Virus record (IMG/VR): IMGVR_UViG_3300017722_003538
Coordinates: 29,071 to 93,070 of that record
Length of the DNA stretch: 64,000 nucleotides
Direction: 5' to 3' (one strand)
Origin: a virus
Lineage: Duplodnaviria > Caudoviricetes
Positions 2,796 to 56,387 of the stretch are shown in pieces (position 1 is the first letter of the stretch; every line of letters starts with the position of its first letter). A program made the translations under genes and the position numbers. The notes beneath the pieces were generated by a model. That model was not told where the DNA came from. It ran no database searches and saw only the letters and a list, made by a program, of their open reading frames with translations.

Positions 2796-5700
2796 ATGAG
2801 CGCTAGCAATTCAATATCACAATTACTTGAACAGTTTCTTGAGTTAAATACTAACTCGCTAGAAACATTTGTAAGAATTAATGAAGCTATCACTACCGAC
2901 AAGGAAACTGTTAGTATTGACCTTTTTAATAGTAAAACAAACAAGATGGAAACTATTCAAATACCTGCCTTTGGGTACTTGAAGAGAGAAATCGATCGTT
3001 TGAATAGTAATGTGAGCTCAATTAGTGGACTTGAAGGTTCGAATGCAAACGTAAGATTAAAAGACGGTACTTTTAGAACTATTCATACTTCAAGATTAAA
3101 AGGACCATCTCCTTCTATCACGTCACTTGCATCTCCTACCCAGTTTTCAACCAAGTTAAATGACTTTTTTGAAAACTTTTTAAATCCATTACTTACAATC
3201 AATTTAGATGTAAGTAACCAAATCCCTGTAGAAACAGAAAAGGTATATGTTGAAAGATATATTTTTAATGAAAATGACCTAGCTTCAATTACAGCATTTG
3301 ATGAACTTTACAGAGGAGGTAGTGAAATTGTTTATTCAGATTTTAAAAATCAGTTAACAGTTAATAACTTTGTCTACTATTTAGATTCTCAAGTTATTGA
3401 TATGCCAATTAGAACAATTCAGTACACCGGATTTTTTGATGTGGTTCGAATTGATAATGCTCAAAAGACAGTTGTTATTGATGGAACAACTCAAACAAAA
3501 ACTGTTAAATTATTTACGCTTAATAAGTTGACTTTTACCGATTCAACTAAAGCCCTAAAAGAAACTGAAACATTAAAAACTGGAGATTCTCTTATTGTTA
3601 ACTCTGGTAATTATAGAACAAGATACAGAATTCTTTCTATTGATGCTTCTACTTCACAAGTAGAGTTGCTATTACTTGAAGGTTCTGAGTCTATTAAGAT
3701 TGGAATCGATTCACTTGGAATTTATAAAGATGTTGATACTGATTTGAATATAGAAATCAATGTTGCATTTAATGAAAGACAGGTTATCTTTGTTAAACCA
3801 ATCGACCCTGTTTCAAAAATACCTGCTGAGAATTTTTCACCAGGAGTTGGATTCTATTCTAATAGTTTAGAAATGAACGACGTGTCTGGTAATAGAATGA
3901 CGCTAGCAGAATATTACAAAAATGAGGTTGCAGATTTTGGACAATTCCTTAAATCACTAAAGGTAGATTACATTCCACCTGCGGCATCTGGAATTAAGCC
4001 AACACCACCTGTTATTAATGTTGAAAACTTTAAAGTTGTTCAAATTAATAAGCACTTAACTGACAATACAACAACCGATAAAATTAAACAATTAAAGGCT
4101 GATAAATCATCGACAGAGCAGTCATTAAAACAGCTTGACGAATCGATTAAACAGAAAAAATCTTTAATTAATACAAAGAAATTTACTTCTCAGGCTGAGA
4201 GTGATACTAGTAAAAATGAATTAAATGCGCTTGTTTCTCAAAGAGATTCTGAATCAAAACTTTTTTCATCTGTAGTTAGCGAAATTAAATCTTCAGCGGA
4301 ATCTGCAGATTTACAAACAGCCGCTCCAAAATATAAAGTTAGAGGATTCTGGTCAGTTCCAGAGCCGAAAACAGTTGGAAACCAAGTATCACAAGAGGTT
4401 GTACAATTTAAAATTAGATACCGATACGTTTCTACTTCAGGAAAAACTTCAAATGTCGATCAATTAAAATTTATCGATGCAACAAACCAAACTGAAAAAA
4501 CAGCTGCTTTTTCAAATTGGGTAGAAGTTCTTGGACCTGTTAGAAAGAGAGCAATGGATGCCAAAGGAAAGTATGGTTGGATTCTTGAAAGCGAAGAGGA
4601 TGCTAATGCAGTAAACTTTAACTCTTTTGATATATCAATTAACCCTGGAGAGGTTGTCGAATTTATGATTAAATCAATTTCAGAAGCTGGATTCCCTGCG
4701 AATCCTCTAGAATCTGATTGGTCAGAAATTCAAAGAATAGAATTTCCACAAGGTGAAATTAATACCGACAGTTTAGGAAATGTTATTAAAGCAAATGAAC
4801 TTGACCTATTAAAAGTACAAATTCAACAGGACTTAGAATCAGCAGGCGTATTTAAACACGTTGGAGAATCTTTTACAGTTGGAAGTCAAACATTTGCCCA
4901 TAGTGCAAACACAATCGCTTCTGGATTTATTACTGACAATCAAGCGCCGATCACCGTATATGAAAAGTTATTGGCTCTTCAAAACGAGGTCTTGAGCTTA
5001 AGAGCGGTTATTGAAAAAACATCTGGTGAGTTACTTGTAAGAATTATTGATGAAAATGGAAACGTTACACCAGTAACAAACAATTCAACTGTACAGTTGT
5101 TTGCGGGTTACTATACTCAAGAAATACCAGCAGTTAATGGAAAAGGTGCAATCGTTACTAAAAACTTTAAAGTTGAATTATCAAATACTAAAGCGACTGA
5201 CCTCGAGTTAATATCCCGAATCGTAGGAGACATTACTCAACCTGCACCCGTTTCTACAGTAAATAACAGGTTTGGTCTTGGAACTGGTACAATAGATTCT
5301 GTTTACAATAGCGATTATTATACTAAAGAAGCCCGATATGATTTGGTTCCGGTAGTTTATCAAAATGTTAGCAACGCTACCGCTCAAGACTATTTTAACA
5401 ACGCGCCAGATCAGTCTTCTCAGCTAAAGGGACAATTTATATACTCTAGATTCAAAAATATTGCAAATGACGATAATCTATATGTAATCAATGAAGGTAC
5501 TTTAAGTGATGGTAATATTAATAACATATCGGCTTCGGCGGATCTTGGTATAAATAGTGCTTATGATTTATATGAATATGGAATCTCATATAAGTTTGGT
5601 GCGCTTGGAGCACCAAATACACCATCTATAGTTCCACCAAGTGGGAATGGATTTAAGAATTTCTCAAACAATATTGGAATCCCGTTTGCTACAGCGGCAG

Positions 5701-35345: not shown

Positions 35346-37676
35346 ATGAATTTTAATGAATTCCTAAATGAAGGTAGTACCTCAACTTATGGTGGACCTG
35401 CTGGACTTACTAAAGATGAGACATTTAAAATTGCTCAAAAATTTGCAGATGCTGCCGCTAGCGTTGACCCTGAAAAAGGAAAATGGGGTGTAAACAAAAG
35501 AACCTTAGAAGAGGATGGGTTTGACCTGGACTACAATGACGTGGAATTCGACGGTGGTTCATATAACATTTACAAAAATGGTAATGTCGTAAATATGGCT
35601 CTTCGTGAAAATCCAGTTTTAGGTAAAATAGGAGATGATATTAAAACTATTGCAAAAGGTTTTAAAAAGATGATGGCAAATGAATCTGCTACAAACGAGG
35701 CTAATTTAGTTTTGGGTTTATCAACTAACAATTATCCAGCCGGAACAATCGCAAGATATCGTATAGAATCTAGTGTTATTAACCTAAGAAAAGTTGCTGA
35801 TTTATCAAAAGATTCATGGAGTAAATATTCAAGAGCATTTGCTGATAGTGAAATTGGTTTTGAAAAATCAAGCGATAGAAAAGAGGCATTAGACGCTATT
35901 CAAAAATCATTTGACAATGGACAGAATGATATCAGAGAGTTTGGTATAAATGAATCAGCAGTTACTGAAAATGAGCATCTTGATATATCAAAATGGAAGA
36001 TAGGAGATACTGTTGAATTTTCTAATGGTGAAATTTGGAAAGTAGCAAAGCCAGGATATAAAAAATCAAATGACTCGATTTTTCTAGCTCCATTTAATGA
36101 TGTTGCAAAAAAAGGACATATTTCATTACCAATTGAATTTACAGCAGATCAATTAACAAATACAGTAACAGAATCAGTAGTTAACGAAAGAAACATCACA
36201 ATCAAAAGACAATATACTGAAAAAAATCCTGCAATTACTGTAGGTAAAGCTGCTAAAATTCGTAATAGAATGTTAGAGGCTATTAAAGATGGTAAAATTT
36301 CTCAAGAGGAATTTAACACAATTCTTGGAGAAATGACCACAGATTCTAAAAGATGGTTGAGAAGAAACGCTCAGTGTTTTAATGTATCTGAAGATGGAAT
36401 TAGTTTATCAAAGACAGGTTCTAGAATCCTTAAAAATGTAATGGTTTCAGAAGCAACTACAAAGGCCCCAAAGATTTGGGTTCCTGGAGGATTTGACAAA
36501 GAAATTGCAAAATACCCAAACCAAAAAATTACCCGAAAAATCGTATTAGATGCGGCACTTAAATGGGATGTAAATCCAGAAGATGCTATCAAATACGTCG
36601 AATTTGCTTGGGTTATTGACTTAGACGAAAACAAAAATAACAACGATATGAAAACAAAATTTATCTACGAATCTTTCGCAGAATTTGTTGAAAACAAATT
36701 AAACGAAGGTACCTTAAATGAAGCATTTAAAAGTGCTAAATTAGCTAACCTTTTCTCAGTGGGAAGTGCTAGTACTAAAGACTTAGCAGGAGCTTTTTAT
36801 AATTTCTCAAAATTAGCACTTGATAAAATCGAGGATTATGACATTATTGAAATGGACCCTCAAACTGCACGTAAAGAAAAAAGAGCAAACGCTATTTATT
36901 TTTACGTAGTAACTAACCAAAAAGTAAATCCATACGCTGAAACTAGTAACCCATCTACATGGAATAATGGACTTATTCAGTCAAATACCCTATTAGCAAT
37001 AACCAACGGTCAAAACGAATGGTATTCAACTGCATATAATAGATATGGAAAAACTAGTACTGAAACTTTAAAAGTTGCTAGTTCAAGAGAAGCTGCCGCA
37101 GGATTTGATAAAAGAGACTCTAAAAGATACGATGGTTCTGGAATTACTTCTGTTACAAAAGTAGCTGAATTAGCTGATATTGCTTATGTTATTGACTTAG
37201 ACGTTCTTAAAGCCCGTTATTCTACGCAATCATTATTATTTAAAAGATCTGAAGATAAACGTGGAGCTACTGCTTTTGTAGATGATAAAGAATTTAAAGC
37301 AGCAAACAAAGCACGTTATAACGAAATCTTAGCGCAAAAAGCAGCTGCAATGCCAATAGACTCAGTTGTATTAGGAGCTATTGATACTCTTGCTACACAA
37401 ATTAAAGATGCTTTAGCTAAATCTGAGAAAGGAAGATACGGAGAACTTATTATTGGATTAGACACTAGAGGTAGAGAAATCAAAATGAGTGATGCTTCTA
37501 ACTTAATGAGAAATATCTTAGACGAGTACAATAGATACGTTGGATATGTTGCTGAATCTGAAAAAGAAGTTGCAACTGGATATAGTGGTAAATTCTACGA
37601 AGGTAGACTAAAAGAAAGTGCTAAAACAATTACAGACTACGTTAAGAAAGTAGACGCTAAAAATTACGCTTGGTAA
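35346..37676 (+). CDS. Second modular head-internal polyprotein
   Basis: MNFNEFLNE leader; linkers ESATNEA, ESAVTE, ESVVNE, MVSEA, KLNEGTLNEA; internal CTS-like segment at 36648. Confidence 0.7.
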   Translation: MNFNEFLNEGSTSTYGGPAGLTKDETFKIAQKFADAAASVDPEKGKWGVNKRTLEEDGFDLDYNDVEFDGGSYNIYKNGNVVNMALRENPVLGKIGDDIKTIAKGFKKMMANESATNEANLVLGLSTNNYPAGTIARYRIESSVINLRKVADLSKDSWSKYSRAFADSEIGFEKSSDRKEALDAIQKSFDNGQNDIREFGINESAVTENEHLDISKWKIGDTVEFSNGEIWKVAKPGYKKSNDSIFLAPFNDVAKKGHISLPIEFTADQLTNTVTESVVNERNITIKRQYTEKNPAITVGKAAKIRNRMLEAIKDGKISQEEFNTILGEMTTDSKRWLRRNAQCFNVSEDGISLSKTGSRILKNVMVSEATTKAPKIWVPGGFDKEIAKYPNQKITRKIVLDAALKWDVNPEDAIKYVEFAWVIDLDENKNNNDMKTKFIYESFAEFVENKLNEGTLNEAFKSAKLANLFSVGSASTKDLAGAFYNFSKLALDKIEDYDIIEMDPQTARKEKRANAIYFYVVTNQKVNPYAETSNPSTWNNGLIQSNTLLAITNGQNEWYSTAYNRYGKTSTETLKVASSREAAAGFDKRDSKRYDGSGITSVTKVAELADIAYVIDLDVLKARYSTQSLLFKRSEDKRGATAFVDDKEFKAANKARYNEILAQKAAAMPIDSVVLGAIDTLATQIKDALAKSEKGRYGELIIGLDTRGREIKMSDASNLMRNILDEYNRYVGYVAESEKEVATGYSGKFYEGRLKESAKTITDYVKKVDAKNYAW

Positions 37677-40246: not shown

Positions 40247-41683
40247 ATGGAATTCTTAGACGCATTAAGACAAGAAGACATGGTAACTGAAAATGGAATG
40301 GCGACAAATTCGACATCGTTGAATGCTTGCGTTGACCTTTTCTTTAACATTGGAGCAATGAGAGGACAAGACAAACAACGTTTGATTGCAACCTTCTCTA
40401 AAGCGTTCAATGAAGATCCGAAGCGTGCTATGAAACTTCTTTTTTGGGCTAGAGATGTTCGAGGTGGAGCTGGAGAACGTCAAGTTTTCAAGGACATTTT
40501 AGTTTATTTGGCAGAAAACCATGACTTGGTTCTTAGACTTAATTTAAAACTAATCCCAGAGTACGGACGTTGGGATGATTTATTAGTCTTAACGGGAACA
40601 TATCTTGAAAAGCAAGCATTCACTTTAATTTCAAATGCAATAATCAACGAAAACGGCTTATGTGCAAAATGGATGCCACGTAAAGGACCAATCGCTGAAA
40701 AGTTACGTAAATTTACTGGAATGTCTCCAAAACAATACAGAAAATCTCTTGTAGGTTTAACAAACGTAGTTGAAACTAAGATGTGTGCTGGAGACTGGAA
40801 TTCTATCGACTTCGGTAAATTACCATCTGTCGCTTCAGCAAGATACCAAAAAGCATTTGGTAAAAACGCATACGAAAGTTATTCAGCCTATATTGCTTCT
40901 CTTGTAAAAGGTGAGGCTAAAATTAATGCAGGTGCAGTTTACCCATACGACGTGACTAAGTCTCTAAACTATGGAAACTCAAGCGTAGCAAACGAACAAT
41001 GGAAAGCTCTTCCAAACTATATGGAAGGCGCAAACGATATGATTTTACCAGTGGTTGATGTCTCAGGTTCTATGTCTTGCCCAGCAGGCGGTAGTAAATC
41101 TGTAACATGTATGGATGTTGCAATCTCTTTAGGTCTTTATATTTCTGAAAGAAATGTGGGTCCTTTCAAAGATGCATTCATTACTTTCTCAAGTAAACCA
41201 CAGTTACAAGTATTAAGTGGCTCATTGAGTGATCGCTACACACAGATGTCAAACTCCGATTGGGGAATGTCAACGGATCTTGAGGCGACCTTCAAATTGA
41301 TTTTAGATCAGGCCACTAAGCATAAACTATCGCAAGATAAAATGCCAAATAAAATCCTAATCCTATCGGATATGGAATTTAATGCCGCAGTTTCTTCTGG
41401 TGGTTACAGTACTAGATTTAAAGGTGGAAAATGGAATCCAGCTGCTCAGCAAATGATTGAGCAAATGTATGCCGATGCAGGTTACAAAGTACCTCAAATT
41501 GTTTACTGGAATATTCAATCCCGAAATGGAGGAGTACCGGTTGCATTTGATACTCAAGGAACTGCACTGGTTTCAGGATTCTCTCCAGCAATTATGACTA
41601 GTTTACTTGGAGGAGACATTGAATCTCCACAGCAAATCATGGATAAAACAATTTTGAGTGAGAGATACGCTCCAGTTGTTTAA
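40247..41683 (+). CDS. DUF2828-family TROVE/Ro60-like helical domain plus vWA protein
   Basis: TENG, DLFF, ARDVRGGAGER, EYGRWDDL, AKWMPR, YRK, VETKMC, vWA MIDAS VDVSGSM, ILSDMEFN, IVYWN, VSGFSP. Confidence 0.85.
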   Translation: MEFLDALRQEDMVTENGMATNSTSLNACVDLFFNIGAMRGQDKQRLIATFSKAFNEDPKRAMKLLFWARDVRGGAGERQVFKDILVYLAENHDLVLRLNLKLIPEYGRWDDLLVLTGTYLEKQAFTLISNAIINENGLCAKWMPRKGPIAEKLRKFTGMSPKQYRKSLVGLTNVVETKMCAGDWNSIDFGKLPSVASARYQKAFGKNAYESYSAYIASLVKGEAKINAGAVYPYDVTKSLNYGNSSVANEQWKALPNYMEGANDMILPVVDVSGSMSCPAGGSKSVTCMDVAISLGLYISERNVGPFKDAFITFSSKPQLQVLSGSLSDRYTQMSNSDWGMSTDLEATFKLILDQATKHKLSQDKMPNKILILSDMEFNAAVSSGGYSTRFKGGKWNPAAQQMIEQMYADAGYKVPQIVYWNIQSRNGGVPVAFDTQGTALVSGFSPAIMTSLLGGDIESPQQIMDKTILSERYAPVV

Positions 41684-41684
41684 A

Positions 41685-41693
41685 GATATATAA
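41685..41693 (+). promoter_or_regulatory. Putative late promoter GATATATAA driving the non-coding transcript
   Basis: Exact motif 7 nt upstream of the first RNA stem. Confidence 0.55.
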
Positions 41694-41700
41694 AGAAAAT

Positions 41701-41757
41701 TGGTTCCTTACAGCAATCCATACAAGCAATTTATAAAGTAAGCAAACATTGGAACCA
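41701..41757 (+). ncRNA. Candidate small RNA unit 1 (end-pairing stem plus ACAGCAA)
   Basis: tggttcc (41701-07) pairs with ggaacca (41751-57); stem followed by ttACAGCAA. Confidence 0.5.
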
Positions 41758-41760
41758 GGT

Positions 41761-41993
41761 GGATCGGTACAGCAAAAAGTACACACAGCTATGATAGCCA
41801 ACGTATTACAGAGATAGTATCAAGTATAACAGGCAAATGGAAGTCTAACCAGGATAAAAAATGGACAAACGTCATACCACCCCAATAGGTGATAAGTAGG
41901 ATGGGTCGAAGTTTAGTAGACGCTCGCGAAAATCAAAGCCGAAGACGTTAAACAGGGTTATTCCGCCGGGAAGAAAATCACGAACAACGATCC
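41761..41993 (+). ncRNA. Candidate structured RNA unit 2 (end-pairing stem plus ACAGCAA)
   Basis: ggatcg (41761-66) pairs with cgatcc (41988-93); followed by gtACAGCAA; short internal hairpins; no ORF of 60 aa or more; GC-richer than other intergenic DNA. Confidence 0.5.
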
Positions 41994-42004
41994 CGTAATA
42001 ATTT

Positions 42005-42049
42005 AATCCTGACAAAATTGTTAATAACTTTTTTAGTCAGGATTTTTTT
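42005..42049 (+). terminator. Rho-independent terminator closing the ncRNA unit
   Basis: aatcctgac/gtcaggatt stem plus T-run. Confidence 0.7.
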
Positions 42050-42095
42050 ATGTCGTTTTTAGTATTATATTTACATATCAAATTAAAGTACATAA

Positions 42096-42123
42096 AAAAC
42101 AAAACCAATATATAACATATAAT
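42096..42123 (+). promoter_or_regulatory. Putative promoter AAAAC-N17-TATAAT, preceded by a TTATATTTACA element (42065-42075)
   Basis: Same spacing as the other copies; TTATATTTACA also at 30601-30611 and resembles the Bacteroidota -7 TAnnTTTG element. Confidence 0.5.
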
Positions 42124-42138
42124 ACTTAAACACAAACT

Positions 42139-42414
42139 ATGAATATTCTAGACGAAGCAAGCGGAATAGTTAATAACCGCTCAGAAGAAGCAGACAGACA
42201 ATATGGTCCTTTCTCAGAAGGTATGGACAGAGCTGCAATGATTTTTAATGGTATGACCGGACTTAATGTTACTGGTCGCGAAATGTTTATGGCACTAGTT
42301 GCACTTAAATTCAGTAGAGAGTCTTACAATCACAAGCGTGATAATTTATTAGATGCAGTTGCATATATCCAAGGATTAGACAACTACATTAACGAAAAGC
42401 AAAACAATGGTTAA
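42139..42414 (+). CDS. DUF6378-like all-alpha nucleotide pyrophosphatase-associated protein
   Basis: IL.EA..IV..R...YG.F...MVALK.SR...HKRDNLLDAVAY. Confidence 0.65.
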   Translation: MNILDEASGIVNNRSEEADRQYGPFSEGMDRAAMIFNGMTGLNVTGREMFMALVALKFSRESYNHKRDNLLDAVAYIQGLDNYINEKQNNG

Positions 42415-43456
42415 TATTTACACAGTTTTAGATTCATTAAAGGGTAAGAAGATTGCAATCGATGATGTTGTAACTACTTATAGTTCAAAGAAGGCCAGCC
42501 ATAAAAGTGCATGGGCTTTCTTATTAGCTAATCAATTAAGGTCCCTAGGACTGGATGCTGAAGTACTTACAAAGTCAGAAGATATTCACCAATATGATGT
42601 TTGGTTAGTAGCACTTCCAATGGAATTCCAAGGGTCTTATAACCTATTTGGTGGAGCCACTGACGAACCAGCAGAAAGGATTAAAAGATTTTTAGATTTT
42701 GGTGGAACAATATATTGTTTGAATCGAGAAATGCCAGATGTTGGAGCATTCGCACAAAGTCGAATGAAATCATGTTCACCTCTATGGGCATCTCTTAATG
42801 TTGAAGCACTTACAAAGAGGAGTAAAGAAACCGAAACAATTGAATTAAAATTGGCTTCCGGAACTTTTGTCCTAGGTGATTCCCATTCAGTTTCAGTATA
42901 CCAACCGGGCGCAAATATTAGCCGAAATGATGGTAAAACCCTATTTGGAGTTATGAAAGAAGGAATGGCATCTTATATTCCTGAAGGAACTGACCACCTA
43001 ATCACATACTTTGGAAACATCGATGTTCGTCATCACTTATGTCGACAAGAAAAACCTGTCGATGCGGTTAAAGCACTTGTAAAAAATTACTTTGAACACT
43101 TACAATCACTAGGAATTCAAAAGAATACGGTTGTAAAATTGCTACCTATCGAATTTGAAGGTCGCAGAATTCCTAAAACTGGGTACTACAAAGGAACTCC
43201 ATTTATCGGTACTCAACGGGAACGGACTCAATTAATGGAAATATTTAATGAAGAGGTTGACAAACTCTCGGCAATATATAATATGAACGTAATCGAATGG
43301 CCGATTCACTGGTATTCAGCAGACCCTCAATACTTTGCCGATACTTACATGGAAAAGCCAGGTTCAGTTCACCTATCTAGAGAGTTTTACCAATATGATT
43401 TCGAGACGTCCGAAAAAAATGTTGCCCTAAAGAAGACTATCAATACTCTTTTTTGA
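42407..43456 (+). CDS. Protein with C-terminal SGNH/GDSL-like domain
   Basis: VLGDSHS (block I), YFGNID (block III), GSVHLS (block V). Confidence 0.55.
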   Translation: MVNIYTVLDSLKGKKIAIDDVVTTYSSKKASHKSAWAFLLANQLRSLGLDAEVLTKSEDIHQYDVWLVALPMEFQGSYNLFGGATDEPAERIKRFLDFGGTIYCLNREMPDVGAFAQSRMKSCSPLWASLNVEALTKRSKETETIELKLASGTFVLGDSHSVSVYQPGANISRNDGKTLFGVMKEGMASYIPEGTDHLITYFGNIDVRHHLCRQEKPVDAVKALVKNYFEHLQSLGIQKNTVVKLLPIEFEGRRIPKTGYYKGTPFIGTQRERTQLMEIFNEEVDKLSAIYNMNVIEWPIHWYSADPQYFADTYMEKPGSVHLSREFYQYDFETSEKNVALKKTINTLF

Positions 43457-43482
43457 AACTTTTTAAATAAACCAAGTATAAA
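43454..43482 (+). promoter_or_regulatory. Putative promoter TGAAAC-N17-TATAAA
   Basis: Conserved motif and spacing upstream of ino1. Confidence 0.65.
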
Positions 43483-43507
43483 AATTATAAATTAAATTTT
43501 AAGAAAA

Positions 43508-44695
43508 ATGAACAAAATTAAAGTAGGAATTATTGGAACTGGAAATTGTGCCAAATCATTAGTTGAAGGTGTACAATATTACACAGAGAACCCAAATGAT
43601 ATTACTGGGATGATGAAATCCGACATCGGAGGTTACAAAGCAGAAAACATCGAGTTTGTATGTGGATTCGAAATTGATGAACGTAAAGTTAATCAAACAT
43701 TAGGATACGCACTTAAACAAAGACCAAACTCTGCATGGGACATTGTTGATGTTATTCACTCTGAAGCGCCAGTTTACGAGGCTCCAGTAATTGATGGTTA
43801 TGCAGCGCTTATGGATAACTATCCAGAACAAAATCGCTTCTTAGTTGACGAAAAACTGAGAAATTCTACGGACATGAATCGTACTGATTGGACTCCAAAA
43901 AAAGCACGTGAATGGAAGGATTCAATCATTGCTAAATTAAAAGACCATGGTGTTGAAGTATTGATTAACTACTTACCAGTAGGTTCTCAAAAAACAACTG
44001 AATTCTGGGCTGAAATTTGTCTTGAAACAGGAATCTCTCTAGTAAACTGTATTCCAGTATTTATTGCATCTGACCCTGCATGGGAGCAAAGATTCATCGA
44101 CGCTGGTATTCCAATTATCGGAGATGATATGCGTTCTCAATTTGGAGCAAGTATTCTTTCTCAAATGTTACAAGAACTTGCCTTTGAAAGAGGACATCAT
44201 GTAAAAGCCCACATCCAAAGAAATGTTGGAGGTAACACGGACTTCTTAAATATGGAAGATAAATCTCGTCTTGCTTCTAAAAAGATTTCTAAAGAAAACG
44301 TTATCCGTGCACAAAACGAAATCAGAGGAATTTCAACTGAAGATTCATTCCTACATGCCGGTCCTTCTGAGTATATCGCATTCTACGGTGATAATAAAGT
44401 TGCTAACTTCCGCTTAGAACTTACAGGATTCGGTGGAGCACCAGTTCTTTTTGATGCTCAATTAAGTGTACAAGACTCTCCAAACTCAGCTGGAGTAGTA
44501 ATCGATGCAGTTCGTTATTTAAGAGTTGCAAGAGAATTAGGAGTTGTAGGAGCCTTAAGAGGTCCTTCAGCGTTCACACAAAAAACTCCACCAGATCAAA
44601 TGATGTTTGCTGATGCGGTTTATGAGTGTACTGAATTGGCTGCAAGACGCTTAACAGATTCTACAAGAAAACAGTTAGTTGCTAAAAAAGCCTAA
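43508..44695 (+). CDS. ino1: myo-Inositol-1-phosphate synthase
   Basis: GTGNCAKSLVEG, NYLPVGS, NCIPVFIA, IGDDMRSQFGA, NVGGNTDFLNM, SKKISK, GPSEY, DNK, DSPNSAGVVIDA. Confidence 0.95.
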   Translation: MNKIKVGIIGTGNCAKSLVEGVQYYTENPNDITGMMKSDIGGYKAENIEFVCGFEIDERKVNQTLGYALKQRPNSAWDIVDVIHSEAPVYEAPVIDGYAALMDNYPEQNRFLVDEKLRNSTDMNRTDWTPKKAREWKDSIIAKLKDHGVEVLINYLPVGSQKTTEFWAEICLETGISLVNCIPVFIASDPAWEQRFIDAGIPIIGDDMRSQFGASILSQMLQELAFERGHHVKAHIQRNVGGNTDFLNMEDKSRLASKKISKENVIRAQNEIRGISTEDSFLHAGPSEYIAFYGDNKVANFRLELTGFGGAPVLFDAQLSVQDSPNSAGVVIDAVRYLRVARELGVVGALRGPSAFTQKTPPDQMMFADAVYECTELAARRLTDSTRKQLVAKKA

Positions 44696-47096: not shown

Positions 47097-47564
47097 ATGG
47101 CAAATATAGACAATCAATGTAAAGACCTGGAAGTTAAAGACTTCTATTCAGATTCGACCACCCACCTGGCGGATATTATGGAAAACCAAAAGAAAATGCA
47201 GGAGCAAACTTATGGTTTCAATTTTGAAAATATGTCAATTAGAGAAATTATGAACTTTTGGCATGTTAATACCCATGCAGTAGTTGATGAAATTCACGAG
47301 ATGACAGATGCCCTTGGAGGTATTAAAGATGGTAGTGGAAATGCAGTTTGGAAATACTGGAAAAAAGACTTTTCAAAGTATGAAACCATGAAAATCAGCG
47401 ACCTATCTGAAGAGGACAAGAAAGAACTTTATATGGAATGGGTAGACATACTACACTTCTTTATAAATTATGCGTCTTCAATCGGATTAGATGCAAAAAC
47501 AGCGTACAATTATTACTTCGCGAAAGCAGAAGAAAATGTTAACCGTCAAAAAAGAGGATATTAA
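47097..47564 (+). CDS. Dimeric dUTPase/dCTPase (MazG fold, T4 gp56-like)
   Basis: DEIHEM, WKYWK, EWVDILHF, YFAKAEENVNRQKRGY. Confidence 0.85.
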   Translation: MANIDNQCKDLEVKDFYSDSTTHLADIMENQKKMQEQTYGFNFENMSIREIMNFWHVNTHAVVDEIHEMTDALGGIKDGSGNAVWKYWKKDFSKYETMKISDLSEEDKKELYMEWVDILHFFINYASSIGLDAKTAYNYYFAKAEENVNRQKRGY

Positions 47565-48961
47565 TGATTTTAGACATCGAACAGCGTGAAAAAGATGTTA
47601 TCATTTCATACTACAATGACAAAGGTGAAGTAGCATTCAAACAATATCCAGTGGATAAATTCCAAAATTGGTATGTTTGTGATGACAAAGACAAAGCGGC
47701 TAGCCCAGACTATAAAAACTGGGATGGCCGTCCTGTTAAACTAGGATATGGAAAACAATTCAATAAGTTTTCTATCCTTTATTTTTTAGATAATCTTTCA
47801 GAGAAAGACAAAAAGGATTTGACAGCATATAATATGCCAAAAACCTATTTTGTCGATATTGAAACTGAAATTGTTGATGGCTTTCCAAAAGCCGAAGAGG
47901 CCAAAAGTAGAATTCTTTCATTCTCAATAATCACTCCAGACCGTAAAGCAATCGTCTTAGGTTTGGAAGATATGGCCTCAGATAAAATCCAAAAGATTCA
48001 AGATGATACTAATGAGTATTTCAAAGACTTTGACCAGGACTGGGAATTTAAGTACCACAAGTTTAAGTCTGAATATGACATGGTGTACACATTCTTAATG
48101 AAATTCTTACCAAAGTTTCCAATGATGACTGGGTGGAATTTTATTAACTATGACTGGCAATATATTGTTAATCGATGCAAGAGACTTCAAATCGATATTA
48201 AAGAAGTTGGTATGACAAATTCAATCGATCATACTGATGGTCGACCTCTTCATATTGGAATTCTTGACTACATGCAATTGTATGATAAATACGACCGAAC
48301 TGTAAAAGTTAAAGAATCTAACTCTTTGGATTATGTTTCAAGTCAAGTTTTGAACGTTAACAAAATCAAGTTCACTGGCTCACTACAGGACTTATACCGC
48401 GATAATTTTGTCAAGTACATATATTACAATGTTGTCGATTCAGTGTTGGTGTACTACATTGACCAGAAGTTGAAGTCCATGGAGGTACTACTAACCTTGG
48501 CAAATATTACAAATATGCCATTGTATAAAGCAAGTTCTCCAGTGGCGGTTACTGAAGCTATTATGGCTAGAAAACTTGCTGAGCAAGGAATGCGAATTGG
48601 AAGCGAAGAGAAAAATGATAGTCAAAAAGATGGTCAATACGCCGGAGCATTTGTAAAAGAACCTATACTTGGATTCTATGAAGGTGTAAGTGCATTCGAT
48701 TTTGCGTCACTATACCCTTCTATCATGAGACAATTTAATATATCTCCAGATGCCTACATCGAAAAGATTTATAAGAGTGAAATTGAAGAGAGACGTAAAG
48801 ACAAAGAGGTTATCGTTTGTGATAATGGTGTAGTTTATAAAACTGAGGATTCAATCTTAAGAAAGATATTAAGTGACCTTTATGCACAACGTAAAGATTA
48901 TAAAAAAACTTCTTATGAATACTTCACAAAAGCTGACCGGTTGAAAAAACTGCTCCAATAA
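47564..48961 (+). CDS. gp43: Family B DNA polymerase, N-terminal subunit (exonuclease, motif A, first fingers helix)
   Basis: DIETE ExoI, GWNFINYD ExoII, YNVVD ExoIII, YAGAFVKEP, FDFASLYPS; lacks motifs B and C. Confidence 0.92.
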   Translation: MILDIEQREKDVIISYYNDKGEVAFKQYPVDKFQNWYVCDDKDKAASPDYKNWDGRPVKLGYGKQFNKFSILYFLDNLSEKDKKDLTAYNMPKTYFVDIETEIVDGFPKAEEAKSRILSFSIITPDRKAIVLGLEDMASDKIQKIQDDTNEYFKDFDQDWEFKYHKFKSEYDMVYTFLMKFLPKFPMMTGWNFINYDWQYIVNRCKRLQIDIKEVGMTNSIDHTDGRPLHIGILDYMQLYDKYDRTVKVKESNSLDYVSSQVLNVNKIKFTGSLQDLYRDNFVKYIYYNVVDSVLVYYIDQKLKSMEVLLTLANITNMPLYKASSPVAVTEAIMARKLAEQGMRIGSEEKNDSQKDGQYAGAFVKEPILGFYEGVSAFDFASLYPSIMRQFNISPDAYIEKIYKSEIEERRKDKEVIVCDNGVVYKTEDSILRKILSDLYAQRKDYKKTSYEYFTKADRLKKLLQ

Positions 48962-49004: not shown

Positions 49005-49982
49005 ATGAGCAATATCTTCGAAAAAAGGGTAAATATTTTACCTTACGAATACCCTTCGCTATTAGCATACAAAGATGCAATCCGACACTCGTACTGGATT
49101 CACACAGAATTTAACTTTACAACAGATATTGATGACTTTATGACTAAAGTAACAGAATCAGAGCGTGAAGTAATTAAAAGATCGATGCTTGCAATCGCAC
49201 AAATCGAGGTTAACGTTAAAACATTTTGGGCGGATCTTTATAAAAGAATGCCAATCACTGAAATTGGAGATGTTGGAATGACATTTGCTGAAAGTGAAGT
49301 GAGACACAAAGACGCTTACGCACAATTATTAAGAGTCCTAGGATTAGAAGACGAATTCCAACATGTAGTAGAGATTCCAGCAATTAAAGATAGAATTGCA
49401 TACTTAAGTAAGTATTTGGACGGTACAAGAAGTAAGGACAATAAAATGTATACAAAATCCGTATTGCTATTTTCATTGTTTATAGAACATGTTAGTCTAT
49501 TTAGCCAATTCTTTATTATGATGTCTTTTAACAAAGAGAAAAACCTATTTAAGGGTATTTCAAATGTAGTTGAGGCGACAAGTAAAGAGGAGGAAATCCA
49601 CGGAAACTTCGGATCTGAGCTAATCAACATTATTAAGAGAGAAAATCCAGAATGGTTTGATGAGGAATTCGAACAACTTATAGATTCTGCCTGTAAAAAA
49701 GCATACCTAGCAGAGGTTAAAATTCTTGATTGGATTTTTGAAAAGGGTGAACTTGATTTCCTATCAAAAGAAACTATCAAACAATTTATTCAAAATCGTT
49801 TTAATAATTCTCTACAACGAATTGGAATGAAACCTGTATTTGATGTTGATTTTACAGAAATTGAAAAATCTTTATGGTTTGATGTTGAGATTCTTTCAAC
49901 AAAAGAAGGTGATTTCTTCTACAAAAAATCAATTGACTACAACAAAAAGTCTAAGGCAATCACCGAAGACGACTTATTTTAA
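49005..49982 (+). CDS. nrdB: Ribonucleotide reductase class I beta subunit
   Basis: ESEVRHKDAY, EHVSLFSQF, EEEIHG iron-ligand motifs; DFF C-terminus. Confidence 0.93.
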   Translation: MSNIFEKRVNILPYEYPSLLAYKDAIRHSYWIHTEFNFTTDIDDFMTKVTESEREVIKRSMLAIAQIEVNVKTFWADLYKRMPITEIGDVGMTFAESEVRHKDAYAQLLRVLGLEDEFQHVVEIPAIKDRIAYLSKYLDGTRSKDNKMYTKSVLLFSLFIEHVSLFSQFFIMMSFNKEKNLFKGISNVVEATSKEEEIHGNFGSELINIIKRENPEWFDEEFEQLIDSACKKAYLAEVKILDWIFEKGELDFLSKETIKQFIQNRFNNSLQRIGMKPVFDVDFTEIEKSLWFDVEILSTKEGDFFYKKSIDYNKKSKAITEDDLF

Positions 49983-50004
49983 TTTTAAAAACAAAGAATA
50001 CAGA

Positions 50005-51630
50005 ATGGAATATGAAAAGAATTACTGGCTTAACGAAGACAGTAGAACATTTTTATCTAGAGGTTATATTACTGAATCTCCAGAGCAGCGAATTAAAGAT
50101 GTAGCAAACACAGCAGAAAGATACTTAAAAATCGAAGGGTTTGCAAAAAAGTTTGAGGACTATATGGGTAGAGGATTCTATAGTTTATCAACTCCAGTTT
50201 GGATTAATTTTGGAAAAGACAAAGGACTTCCGGTTAGTTGTTATGGAAGTAATGTAGATGATACACTAGATAGTATCTTAAATGGTAGTAGAGAGGTTGG
50301 AATGATGTCAAAATACGGAGGAGGAACTTCGGCATTTTTAGGAAATATTAGAGCAAGAGGTTCTAAAATTTCGACAGGTGGAACTGCAGATGGTCCAGTA
50401 CATTATGCCAGATTATATGATACAACAGTTGATGTATGTAAACAATCAGAGGCCAGAAGAGGAGCATGCGCAGTTTGGTTACCAGTTGAACACAATGACA
50501 TTTTAGAATTTTTAGATATTGGAACCGATGGTAATCCAATTCAAAACCTACAATATGGAGTTACCGTTACCGATGCTTGGATCGCTGATATGAAGGCAGG
50601 AGACGCAGACAAACGTAAAATTTGGGCTAAAATAATTCAAAGACGTAATGAGTTTGGTTTTCCTTACATTATGTTTAAAGATAATACCAACAACAATTCA
50701 CCGTATAAAGAGTTAGGTTTGGAAATCACTGCAAGTAACCTTTGTAGTGAAATTCAATTACCAACAGATAGTTTTAATTCATTTGTTTGTTGTTTAGGTT
50801 CTATTAATTTATTACATTGGGACGAAATTAAAGAGACTGATGCAATTGAAGTTTATACAATGTTCTTAAATGCAGTTATGGACGAATTCGTTAATAAGTC
50901 TTATAATATGCCTGGAATGAAAAGAGCATGGAGATTTGCAAATGACCACAGAGCACTGGGTCTTGGAGTATTGGGTTACCATTCATTATTTCAGGCTAAA
51001 TTAATTACATTTGATTCTCTTCAAGCAAAACAATTAAATCACGAAATCTTCTCAACTCTTAAAGAAAAGAGCGAAGAGGCTTCAAGATGGTTGCACGATG
51101 AGAAAGGTTACCGTTCAATCCGACCAGGATATGCTAACACTACCCTAGTTGCGATTGCTCCAACCAAAAGTAGTTCATTTATCCTAGGACAGGTAAGTAT
51201 GGGAATTGAACCAATCAAATCTAATTATTTTATTAAGGATTTGGCTAAGTCAAAAACAATTTACAAAAATCCTTTCTTAATTCAAGAGTTAGACAAATAT
51301 GGTTTAAATACACCAGACGTTTGGGAAGGAATATTAAAACGTGACGGAAGCGTACAACATTTAGACTTTCCAACTAAAGAGGTTTTTAAATCTTTTGTTG
51401 AAATCTCTCCAAAAGAAATAGTACTACAAGCGGCTCAAAGACAACATTTTATTGACCAATCACAGTCACTAAATTTAATGATACATCCATCAGTTTCGGC
51501 TAAGGATATTAATACACTATACCTTTACGCTCATGAGGAAGGGGTTAAAACTCTATACTATCAATTTAGTCAAAGTTCAGCCCAGTCTTTTGCAAGAGAC
51601 ATTCTTGAATGCTCAAGCTGCGAGGCATAA
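50005..51630 (+). CDS. nrdA: Ribonucleotide reductase class I alpha subunit without ATP cone; start reassigned from 49840
   Basis: LPVSC, GGGTS, SNLCSEI, CCLGS, APTKSSS, KTLYY, C-terminal CSSC; ATG 50005 follows the nrdB stop. Confidence 0.93.
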   Translation: MEYEKNYWLNEDSRTFLSRGYITESPEQRIKDVANTAERYLKIEGFAKKFEDYMGRGFYSLSTPVWINFGKDKGLPVSCYGSNVDDTLDSILNGSREVGMMSKYGGGTSAFLGNIRARGSKISTGGTADGPVHYARLYDTTVDVCKQSEARRGACAVWLPVEHNDILEFLDIGTDGNPIQNLQYGVTVTDAWIADMKAGDADKRKIWAKIIQRRNEFGFPYIMFKDNTNNNSPYKELGLEITASNLCSEIQLPTDSFNSFVCCLGSINLLHWDEIKETDAIEVYTMFLNAVMDEFVNKSYNMPGMKRAWRFANDHRALGLGVLGYHSLFQAKLITFDSLQAKQLNHEIFSTLKEKSEEASRWLHDEKGYRSIRPGYANTTLVAIAPTKSSSFILGQVSMGIEPIKSNYFIKDLAKSKTIYKNPFLIQELDKYGLNTPDVWEGILKRDGSVQHLDFPTKEVFKSFVEISPKEIVLQAAQRQHFIDQSQSLNLMIHPSVSAKDINTLYLYAHEEGVKTLYYQFSQSSAQSFARDILECSSCEA

Positions 51631-55190: not shown

Positions 55191-56387
55191 ATGACAATCG
55201 AAGAATTAATACTAAAACCAGAAGGTGAGTTATCGCAAGATGAAATTAAAATATTGGTTGAGCATTATTCTATGTTGTCAGCAAAGTTCGGAGCCTATGA
55301 GCAAGCCGTAAAAGTAATGCTTAACTCGATCTACGGCGCCTTCGGTAACAAATGGTTTCACTTTTTTAATATAGACATCGCAGAATCGATCACATTACAA
55401 GGTCAATCTGCGATTCTATATTCTGAGAAGATACTAAATAAGTATTTTCAAGAGTTCTGGACCAAGGATCGGGCAGTTCATGAGTTTTTTAACATTCAAG
55501 TTAAAAATAAACTTGTGCGACCTTCCGTAGTTTATATCGATACAGATTCTTGTTATGTTCAGTTTGAAGAGATGTATGAATCTATCGAATGGCTTAGAGA
55601 CAAGGTATCGATTGACCAATTCATTATGAAATTGTATAACTTCAGACTTAAAGATTATATTTTTAAGTGTATGGAGAAATATGCCGAAGCCACTAATACT
55701 GAAAACTTCCTCCAGTTTGAATTGGAAACAATTGCATACTCTGGGATTTGGTTAGCTAAGAAAAAATACTTGCAGAATATTGCATGGGAAGACAAGATTG
55801 GAATCGAAGAACGTTATCCATCTCTTAAGAAGGTTAAAACTATCGGATTTGATACGATTCAAAGTTCAACACCAGCACTTGCAAGAAAGCAGTTGACTGA
55901 GATTCTTAAACTGATTCTTTCAGAAAAACCTACCGCTTCCTTATTGAAAAGACTTGTAGACTATTTGAAACAATGTAAAAAAGAATTTCAATTAGCAAGT
56001 GTTGATGAGATATGTTTTAATAAAAGAACAAACAATCTTGAAAAATATATCGTAGATGATACCGTAGAATTTCAATATGGTTTAAAATGTCCGCCAAACG
56101 TAAAAGCCGCAGGTTTTTATAATTTCTTAATGAATCAAAATCCAAAGTTCAAGAACAAGTACAAGATGATTGGTAATGGTGAAAAGTTAAAATTGTACCA
56201 CTGTAAACATGCGACTTGCGAGATATTTGCATACCAACCTGGAGCTCACCCTTATGAAATTGCACCGACAGTTGACTATGAAATGCAATTTGAAAAGAGC
56301 GTTATAGACCCATTGAACCGGGTTCTAACCGCAGTTGGACTACACACATTAAATAGAAACTTAATTTATTCAACCTCATTATTTTAA
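55191..56387 (+). CDS. gp43: Family B DNA polymerase, C-terminal subunit (motifs B and C, thumb)
   Basis: KVMLNSIYGAFG, AESITLQGQ, YIDTDS, AKKKY, SSTP, QFEKS, C-terminal SLF clamp-binding-like tail. Confidence 0.93.
   Translation: MTIEELILKPEGELSQDEIKILVEHYSMLSAKFGAYEQAVKVMLNSIYGAFGNKWFHFFNIDIAESITLQGQSAILYSEKILNKYFQEFWTKDRAVHEFFNIQVKNKLVRPSVVYIDTDSCYVQFEEMYESIEWLRDKVSIDQFIMKLYNFRLKDYIFKCMEKYAEATNTENFLQFELETIAYSGIWLAKKKYLQNIAWEDKIGIEERYPSLKKVKTIGFDTIQSSTPALARKQLTEILKLILSEKPTASLLKRLVDYLKQCKKEFQLASVDEICFNKRTNNLEKYIVDDTVEFQYGLKCPPNVKAAGFYNFLMNQNPKFKNKYKMIGNGEKLKLYHCKHATCEIFAYQPGAHPYEIAPTVDYEMQFEKSVIDPLNRVLTAVGLHTLNRNLIYSTSLF

Follow-up and report, generated by a model that had tools for sequence, protein, structure and literature searches.

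Small RNAs with a closing stem and an ACAGCAA motif accompany DUF2828 genes of phages and are candidate Y RNA equivalents of a Ro60-like protein

What is encoded in the roughly 350 nt behind a phage gene for a Ro60-like protein, where no sizeable open reading frame (ORF) is to be found? The locus that raises this question lies in a stretch of 64,000 nucleotides, here called the window, which is part of the IMG/VR virus record IMGVR_UViG_3300017722_003538 (positions 29,071 to 93,070; Caudoviricetes) and in which phage tail-fibre and replication genes are present. A sequence-only reading of the window had proposed that its DUF2828 gene, taken to encode a Ro60/TROVE-like vWA protein, is followed by a non-coding transcript of its own made of two Y-RNA-like units, each carrying the motif ACAGCAA. 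The comparative data described here show that these units belong to a covarying RNA family, referred to below by its plan as stem-NN-ACAGCAA, and that this family is coupled to the DUF2828 gene in a strand-specific manner, though not universally. It is likely that the RNAs are the Y RNA equivalents of the Ro60-like phage protein, a proposal in which the binding, the docking module and the function are the parts that we infer.

Direct reading of the sequence finds every element of that proposal in its place. The gene (40247..41683, + strand) is an ORF of 478 aa, in the product of which a helical, TROVE-like domain at the N-terminus and a vWA domain at the C-terminus are predicted. Behind its stop codon the motif GATATATAA is found at 41685-41693, as part of a promoter-like A/T box (GATATATAAA, 41685..41694, + strand) that ends 6 nt short of the first unit, and from 41684 to 42138 the + strand holds no ORF of at least 30 aa, with the next gene starting at 42139. 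Unit 1 is a small RNA of 57 nt (41701..41757, + strand), recognised by covariance models and stem covariation, in which the 5' arm TGGTTCC (41701-41707) faces the 3' arm GGAACCA (41751-41757) and a following G, with the spacer TT (41708-41709), ACAGCAA (41710-41716) and an A/U-rich loop in between. Unit 2 is larger at 233 nt (41761..41993, + strand), recognised from a 22-sequence alignment and RNAalifold, and has the arms GGATCG (41761-41766) and CGATCC (41988-41993), the latter followed by CGU, around the spacer GT (41767-41768), ACAGCAA (41769-41775) and a structured insert that includes a covarying hairpin (41961-41972) and a conserved GUCGAAG. Both units follow one plan, as had been claimed, of closing stem, two spacer bases, ACAGCAA, variable insert and 3' arm with G. 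The stretch is closed by an intrinsic terminator (42005..42049, + strand), a long hairpin and T-run that is predicted by folding and kept in relatives. A scan of the window with sigma-70 and terminator consensus models called neither the 41685 box nor the 42005-42049 terminator, the terminator being missed because its loop is longer than 8 nt. The window alone is weak evidence against chance, with TACAGCAA occurring twice in it where 2.25 occurrences are expected, both of them in the same gap, and it is the comparative evidence that is decisive.

For this comparison 80 related viral loci were fetched, with a protein identity of 57-97% and many of them closely related to each other. Two exact copies of ACAGCAA, 53-67 nt apart and no more than 700 nt downstream of the gene, are found in 44 of the 80, and the pair is kept both directly after the DUF2828 stop and beyond an inserted gene of ~380 nt. 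The stem of unit 1 takes many forms, TGGTTCC/GGAACCA, AGGTTCC/GGAACCT, TGGTTCT/AGAACCA, AGGTTTC/GAAACCT, GGGATAG/CTATCCC, AGGATAG/CTATCCT and TGAGTGG/CCACTCA among them, and across 30 distinct sequences 98.6% of its cells are paired, which falls to ~54% when the partner is slid by one column. Four of its seven pairs have changed on both sides, with a covariation score that was reached in 0 of 500 shuffles. Unit 2 varies between 181 and 259 nt across 35 distinct loci and its closing stem is found as GGATCG/CGATCC, as a GGATAG/CTATCCC type and as GGAACG/CGTTCC; from 22 sequences RNAalifold gives 19 pairs, and both sides have changed in 10 of these, the closing stem and the hairpin at 41961-41972 included. 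The claim that the stems differ whilst pairing and motif are kept is thus borne out for both units, and of the internal hairpins ascribed to unit 2 one, that at 41961-41972, covaries. Of the 11-nt motif that adjoins the 5' arm in the Class I RNAs of Dictyostelium (see below), unit 2 and many relatives keep (N)CAGCAA only.

The borders of the stretch are conserved in a similar way. In each of 35 distinct related loci unit 2 is followed by a hairpin and T-run, the stem sequences of which differ, and a TA(T/A)ATAAA-type box stands at a constant distance from unit 1 whether the DUF2828 stop or another gene lies upstream, with one clade having a TTGACT...TATAT(A/T) pair in its place. A second small unit in tandem replaces unit 2 in a further clade (L057, at 4108-4169 and 4183-4242 of that locus; also L058, L061-L063, L050 and L068), therefore the pair of a small and a large unit in the window is one of several arrangements.

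Is the stretch transcribed apart from the gene? Part of it is held by 19 RNA runs, mostly freshwater metatranscriptomes, and for four of these, each from a different study, the contigs were placed on the window, with parts that lack contig cover left uninterpreted. In run X1 the depth is 129 over the RNA stretch and 0-8 over the flanking genes, in run X2 it is 493-997 over the stretch, 12-36 upstream and 0-8 downstream, and in run X4 it is 16-27 against 0-4 over the flanking genes, these being depths of assembled contigs, which cannot give the true expression level, the RNA ends or the strand. Contigs from three freshwater metatranscriptome studies run from 41697 or 41754 to 42008 or 42046, the deep X1 contig covering exactly 41697-42046, and run X5 holds a relative as a single flat contig with its end at 42014. 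An abundant RNA that reaches from the promoter-like box as far as the terminator would fit the contig data, and the non-coding transcript that had been proposed gains by contigs that are far deeper over the units than over the flanks and by the promoter-like box at a fixed distance. The X1 contig has a further peculiarity, as its 382 nt (depth 129) are a permuted copy of the 350-nt stretch in which 42046 is joined to 41697; the joint could reflect a circular or head-to-tail RNA, an abundant small RNA that was ligated artefactually or a cycle in the assembler.

The reach of the family beyond the clade of the window was followed with a strict descriptor and with covariance models. The descriptor, for which two arms of 7 nt must pair, NCAGCAA must come two bases after the 5' arm and G must follow the 3' arm, was run on 85 sources (560 kb). 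Its matches number 84 on the gene strand, spread over 64 sources, and 2 on the opposite strand, compared with 0-4 matches in each of ten simple mononucleotide shuffles. Units are found in phages of very different hosts: four lie among the tRNA genes of E. coli phage HY02 and four among the ~20 tRNA genes of Bacillus phage FADO, three lie upstream of the DUF2828 gene in Listeria phage A511 and two in Campylobacter phage CPX, and three lie downstream of it both in mycobacteriophage Moostard and in Staphylococcus phage S-CoN_Ph10, in the latter beneath tiny annotated ORFs.

A first covariance model, R1, was built from the clade of the window alone and recovered a unit (L076) that had been held out. 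Its scope was insufficient for distant phages, and in its place R2 was built from 22 small units across phage lineages, with an alignment chosen for pairing. Alignment A5 lacks three units (L038, HY02_a and Staph_c) in which the 3' arms had been put in the wrong place by MAFFT, and R2 later recovered two of the three. Unit 1 scores 69.8 bits with R1 and 53.2 bits with R2 and is the sole strong match in the 93-kb record. In five complete phage genomes that had contributed to training, all 14 R2 matches (E <= 0.005) are within ~3 kb of the gene and on its strand, three of them being units left out of training. In five complete phage genomes that had not (755 kb), the best match is on the gene strand in every one, and it adjoins the gene in Enterococcus phage VRE9_2, Klebsiella phage FBKp34, Fusobacterium phage FNU3 and Bacillus phage Thrax4, the last of which has five R2 matches within a tRNA array just upstream of the gene.

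The largest test is that of 80 untrained DUF2828 loci from prokaryotic genomes and genome bins (639 kb, both strands searched). All 84 matches at E <= 0.1, which come from 49 of the 80 loci, are on the gene strand, 81 upstream of the gene and 3 downstream, and the units often end 40-150 nt ahead of the start codon. At E <= 0.01 there are 62 matches in 41 loci, CAGCAA is near-invariant, G follows the 3' arm in 61 of the 62 and all seven stem pairs change on both sides, in an alignment that is fitted to the model. That the motif is both enriched and covarying around homologues of DUF2828, on which the sequence-only reading had staked its case, is hence borne out. Phage Bas51, which has no DUF2828 gene, has no R2 match, as a single and weak control, and in Bas63 the three R2 matches of the whole genome (82069-82141, 82236-82299 and 82691-82764 of the record) all fall between tRNA genes, in gaps left unannotated a short way downstream of the DUF2828 gene.

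The tRNA genes require some caution. Units lie within tRNA arrays in Felixounavirus, Bacillus, Campylobacter and Enterococcus phages, and DUF2828 genes themselves are very often found at the edge of such arrays, with up to ~30 tRNA genes (loci L081-L095, L112 and L114), therefore statistics on the coupling of RNA and gene should control for arrays. The coupling is still present where no array is near the gene, as in the window, the Staphylococcus phage and the Fusobacterium phage FNU3. Tiny ORFs have been annotated over some units, such as the 'hypothetical protein' ORFs of S-CoN_Ph10 (L086, 6510-6599 and 6662-6763) and the opposite-strand ORF bas63_0137 (82748-82900 of the Bas63 record), which probably are mis-annotations. 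Within a tRNA and stem-ACAGCAA array upstream of another DUF2828 gene (L115, 1007-1068) there is also a freshwater-1 RNA (RF02979, 82.7 bits against a threshold of 72), and this RNA may belong to the same module.

What kind of protein do these RNAs accompany? By sequence it belongs to DUF2828 (PF11443; E 2.5e-32, 112.7 bits against a cut-off of 29) and DUF7788 (PF25043; E 5e-53, 180.1 bits against a cut-off of 27.1), and its match among the PHROG families is phrog_850, 'RNA-binding protein' (E 1e-155). It is a family of great size, with 6621 clusters at 50% identity (E <= 0.001). Homologues, which are nearly full-length in 708 cases, occur in 711 phage genomes on deposit, and Escherichia, Salmonella, Vibrio, Listeria, Staphylococcus, Campylobacter, Enterococcus, Bacillus and Mycobacterium are among the hosts. 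A likeness to Ro60 is hardly visible at this level: Pfam at E <= 0.01 returned DUF2828 and DUF7788 only and no TROVE domain, phmmer against the sequences of the Protein Data Bank (PDB) gave no Ro60 match, the relatives listed by a homologous-protein search are 85-100% identical and have no useful names, and among the matches listed by an Atlas search there are viral and bacterial DUF2828 clusters only. A profile of 109 representatives does bring up TROVE/Ro60 chains first among the PDB sequences, weakly (E 0.04-0.17) and over the vWA part.

The fold gives a clearer answer. An AlphaFold2 model made on the 109-sequence alignment is confident (pLDDT 92.7, pTM 0.91), and in a Foldseek search of the PDB its best 13 matches are all Ro60/TROVE structures (E 4e-9 to 1e-4), isolated vWA domains ranking below them at E >= 0.006. 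The model aligns with Xenopus Ro60 (with RNA) at a TM of 0.62-0.63 over the full length, and other structures of the top 13 are Deinococcus Rsr, human Ro60 and the Ro60 of Thermus phage phiLo. D271, S273, S275, T343 and D375 are invariant in the 109 sequences and we take them to be the MIDAS motif (DxSxS, T, D) of the vWA domain, and many Arg and Lys residues of the helical domain are invariant as well. On this model the protein is a Ro60-like ring protein with TROVE-type helical and vWA/MIDAS domains. The comparison with Ro60 that had been suggested therefore turned out in favour of the label Ro60/TROVE-like, which is right for the fold and does not extend to membership of the TROVE sequence family.

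The resemblance to Ro60 and its Y RNAs can be stated point by point. In the bacterial paradigm, as described by Chen et al. 2014 (PMC4201824), YrlA is encoded beside rsr and consists of a Ro-binding stem and a tRNA-like domain, with the motif GNCGAAN0-1G near the 5' end. Common to that system and to the phage loci are a ring-shaped protein of TROVE and vWA domains, one to several non-coding RNAs beside its gene and on the same strand, 5' and 3' ends that are paired in a stem, with a short conserved motif beside it, a tRNA-like domain in some of the RNAs and a link to RNA repair genes such as that for RtcB. The differences are that the protein of the window is missed by the Pfam TROVE model and belongs to DUF2828/DUF7788, that the motif of the phage units is a single-stranded ACAGCAA after the 5' arm rather than GNCGAAN0-1G, and that the small phage units have no tRNA-like part and are often interleaved with phage tRNA genes. 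The GUCGAAG of unit 2 sits ~150 nt from the 5' end, whereas the YrlA motif is near that end.

The tRNA-like domain is found elsewhere in the family, in Moostard, HY02 and the locus L108. YrlA-like tRNA mimics, which are large units or RNAs located between units and are below the threshold (69), score 37.9 bits in Moostard (L084, 4060-4168) and 37.7 bits in L108 (3701-3814); they lie in arrays beside DUF2828 genes, and in Moostard the mimic is the middle one of three units and is enclosed by the stem-ACAGCAA closing module. Against Rfam 15 at gathering thresholds the window has no match, and ARAGORN finds no tRNA or tmRNA in it. The check for Y RNA and YrlA (RF00019, RF02553) by Infernal that had been proposed went against the reading, as the units of the window stay below every threshold. 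As no Rfam Y RNA threshold is reached, the units are Y-RNA-like in architecture and genomic context only, which is to say that the label stands for the end-pairing stem and the place on the same strand beside the gene and fails on the Rfam Y RNA scores.

A second likeness goes beyond what the sequence-only reading had seen. RF01414, the Class I RNA of Dictyostelium, is the sole Rfam family other than those of tRNA and YrlA that matches units across lineages, and it does so over their full length with 23.1-32.4 bits, every phage-unit score being below its gathering score of 41.5 bits. Unit 1 of the window scores 24.9 bits, the units of HY02, A511 and the Staphylococcus phage score 24.4, 23.1 and 26.2 bits, and further loci score 30.7 (L046), 28.8 (L041), 28.2 (L015), 28.1 (L115), 26.7 (L114) and 25.9 bits (L112), with 32.4 bits in L162 the best among relatives. 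Unit 1 contains, letter for letter and in the same register after the stem, the CCUUACAGCAA of the RF01414 consensus. Kjellin et al. 2021 (PMC7919456) describe Class I RNAs as 42-65 nt long, with a short stem that joins the ends, an 11-nt motif by the 5' arm and termini that are conserved where the rest varies, and as unique to Dictyostelia; the RRM protein Rnp1A, the only one named there among four interactors, is a direct binder. Unit 1 falls within this range of lengths (57 nt) and unit 2 at 233 nt outside it, and the small units share the short end-joining stem (7 bp and covarying in unit 1), the motif directly after the 5' arm, the A/U-rich variable remainder and the G(U) tail. They differ in that they score below gathering and come from phages of bacteria and not from amoebae, in that the window has no DUSE promoter (~60 nt upstream) and a box of the TATATAAA type instead, and in that the known binder in Dictyostelium is the RRM protein Rnp1A. 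A literature search found nothing relevant on DUF2828, or on Dictyostelium together with Ro60 or TROVE.

It is conceivable, though we would sooner doubt it than assume it, that the stem-NN-ACAGCAA RNAs and the Class I RNAs are one family with the DUF2828/DUF7788 Ro60-like protein, which is also annotated in plants, as its partner. If so, a second ribonucleoprotein system of the Ro/Y type, common to phages, bins of prokaryotic genomes and eukaryotes, would have been overlooked, and a candidate protein partner and a biochemical role would be at hand for the Class I RNAs.

How might such a particle work? In the proposed scheme the ~350 nt behind the gene would be a separate abundant non-coding transcript, running from the promoter-like box to the terminator and holding two members of the RNA family. 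Each RNA would be built from a 6-7 bp end-pairing stem, two spacers, a single-stranded ACAGCAA, an insert and a 3' arm with G(U), in which the insert would be free to vary from ~35 A/U-rich nt to more than 200 structured nt, and to be tRNA-like in some phages. The invariant module of stem and ACAGCAA would dock on the protein, and the variable insert would be an adaptor by which the ring is gated or further factors or substrates are brought in. Such a particle may then act on RNA during infection, in surveillance or repair, and also in counter-defence.

Some of this can be set against phages in which the protein has been studied. The protein gp130 of the Felixounavirus Bas63 (bas63_0130) is an orthologue with 45% identity over residues 14-474, and in a 2024 PhageMaP preprint (PMC11482910) its deletion impairs growth of Bas63 on hosts with the Ppl defence. 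The preprint notes the Ro60-like structure of gp130 and the position of its gene directly upstream of a tRNA stretch, and its authors guessed that some of the annotated neighbouring tRNAs might be Y RNAs; in that part of the preprint the RNAs are not identified, whereas here they are placed in the gaps between the tRNA genes. The 'Ro-like RNA binding protein' of mycobacteriophages (Moostard, LeBron gp53) belongs to the same family at 33-35% identity, the record of Moostard having the protein annotated and the RNAs not. Besides its Ro-like gene, LeBron has genes for an RNA ligase and a polynucleotide kinase (PMC13148394). An RtcB-type ligase is near the gene in phage A511, and RtcB was not found in the 93-kb record of the window, which is ~34% complete.

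A number of observations weigh against taking these RNAs as Y RNA equivalents that are tied to the DUF2828 gene. At the level of the RNA, the fold energy of the 361-nt stretch is ordinary (z = -0.71), Rfam searched at E <= 10 gives no tRNA or YrlA match in the window and hence no tRNA-like domain there, the failure at every Y RNA and YrlA threshold has to be added, and so has the inability of contigs to give level, ends or strand. On the statistical side the shuffles used as a null for the descriptor are simple ones, and the 100% pairing of alignments A6 and A7 is partly circular, since pairing had guided their selection or fitting. The coupling has gaps as well, with no R2 match within 4 kb at E <= 0.1 in 31 of the 80 genome loci and none in 20 of 36 divergent viral loci, some of which carry a large unit only. 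Matches also occur at a distance: in Sinorhizobium phage phiN3 the best one is 7 kb from the gene, in Vibrio phage phi-pp2 and Aeromonas phage phiAS5 they are 7 and 11 kb upstream, on the gene strand, and of the 7 R2 matches in five whole bacterial genomes (16 Mb) 4 adjoin the gene and 3 are elsewhere. In FNU3 three tandem weak matches (E 0.005-0.05; 37341-37603 of the record, - strand) are ~38 kb from the gene and on the opposite strand, and this cluster may be a second RNA cluster or noise. At the level of function, gp130 alone, from a plasmid or in T7, restores plaquing on Ppl hosts in the preprint cited above (PMC11482910), from which it follows that the RNAs are not needed against Ppl unless host RNAs substitute for them, and which argues that, at least there, they would modulate the protein rather than enable it.

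This last point is also an argument for the view that the RNAs act in trans and independently of DUF2828, as decoys or sponges for a host factor of the RRM or Hfq type or for a defence nuclease, with their adjacency to the gene due to the clustering of RNA genes and genes for RNA metabolism in phages. In Dictyostelium the look-alike Class I RNA has a direct binder in the RRM protein Rnp1A (PMC7919456), gp130 counters Ppl without the RNAs and many units are embedded in tRNA arrays, all of which such a view would accommodate. It does not account for the coupling in the window, the Staphylococcus phage and FNU3, where no tRNA array is nearby, nor for a coupling that is strand-specific and very close in most lineages, and the lack of a match in Bas51, for what that single weak control is worth, does not favour it either; we regard it as unlikely.

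Alternatively the units could be cis-acting parts of longer transcripts, either of DUF2828 or of the tRNA arrays, and serve as autoregulatory sites, to which the protein would bind, in the 5' or 3' untranslated region (UTR) or as signals for RNase processing or stability. That 81 of the 84 matches in the genome loci are just upstream of the gene, often like a leader that ends 40-150 nt before the start, is what would be expected of such sites, and the arrays of Felixounavirus, Bacillus, Campylobacter and Enterococcus phages in which units lie do need processing. The units in the clade of the window have a box and terminator of their own and stay intact when another gene intervenes, the RNA contigs are much deeper over the units than over the gene, units are 7-11 kb from the gene in some phages, and the tandem copies, of which there are 2-5, differ from one another and have inserts that extend to tRNA-like domains, so that a role in cis is improbable.

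A pair like that of type III toxin-antitoxin systems, in which tandem RNAs neutralise a toxic protein, might be suspected from the moderate toxicity of the Ro-like protein gp53 of LeBron to M. smegmatis when overexpressed (PMC13148394) and from the tandem units that precede the gene in most genome loci. The units differ in sequence and length where identical repeats would be expected, the fold is that of Ro60 and not of an endoribonuclease, and gp130 is tolerated alone and benefits its phage, which leaves very little room for such a pair. That two motifs came together by chance in a gap rich in A/T, which the ordinary fold energy and the frequency of TACAGCAA in the window would allow, is ruled out by the comparative data on conservation, covariation and strand-specific coupling.

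What is new here can be separated from what is not. The Ro60 likeness of the protein is already known from database annotations and the 2024 preprint, as is the general principle of Ro60 and Y RNA. An RNA family with this signature, breadth and coupling to DUF2828 was not found in Rfam 15 or the searchable literature, and neither its placement in phage tRNA arrays nor its likeness to Class I RNAs was found in the searchable literature. The exact match of unit 1 to the Class I RNA motif and the breadth of the family go beyond what had been read from the window. A huge protein family that is annotated as 'RNA-binding' or 'Ro-like' by resemblance only thereby gains a candidate partner RNA with a simple signature, the unannotated gaps in phage tRNA arrays find an explanation and the tiny ORFs over units come under doubt. 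For the anti-defence protein gp130 of Bas63 it is shown where the Y RNAs that had been guessed for it would lie, which makes a role of RNA there testable, and the link to Dictyostelium would, if the kinship is real, offer a direct route to the function of the Class I RNAs.

Two further features of the window do not touch the RNA locus directly. The genes downstream of it (42139-44695) are an unusual set for a phage, with a DUF6378 protein, a weak match to a GDSL-like hydrolase and a myo-inositol-1-phosphate synthase domain. Further on, a family-B DNA polymerase is found as two ORFs (47564-48961 and 55191-56387) that correspond to the N-terminal and C-terminal halves of PHROG 262, and the ~6 kb between them include the gene for the large subunit of ribonucleotide reductase (49840-51630).

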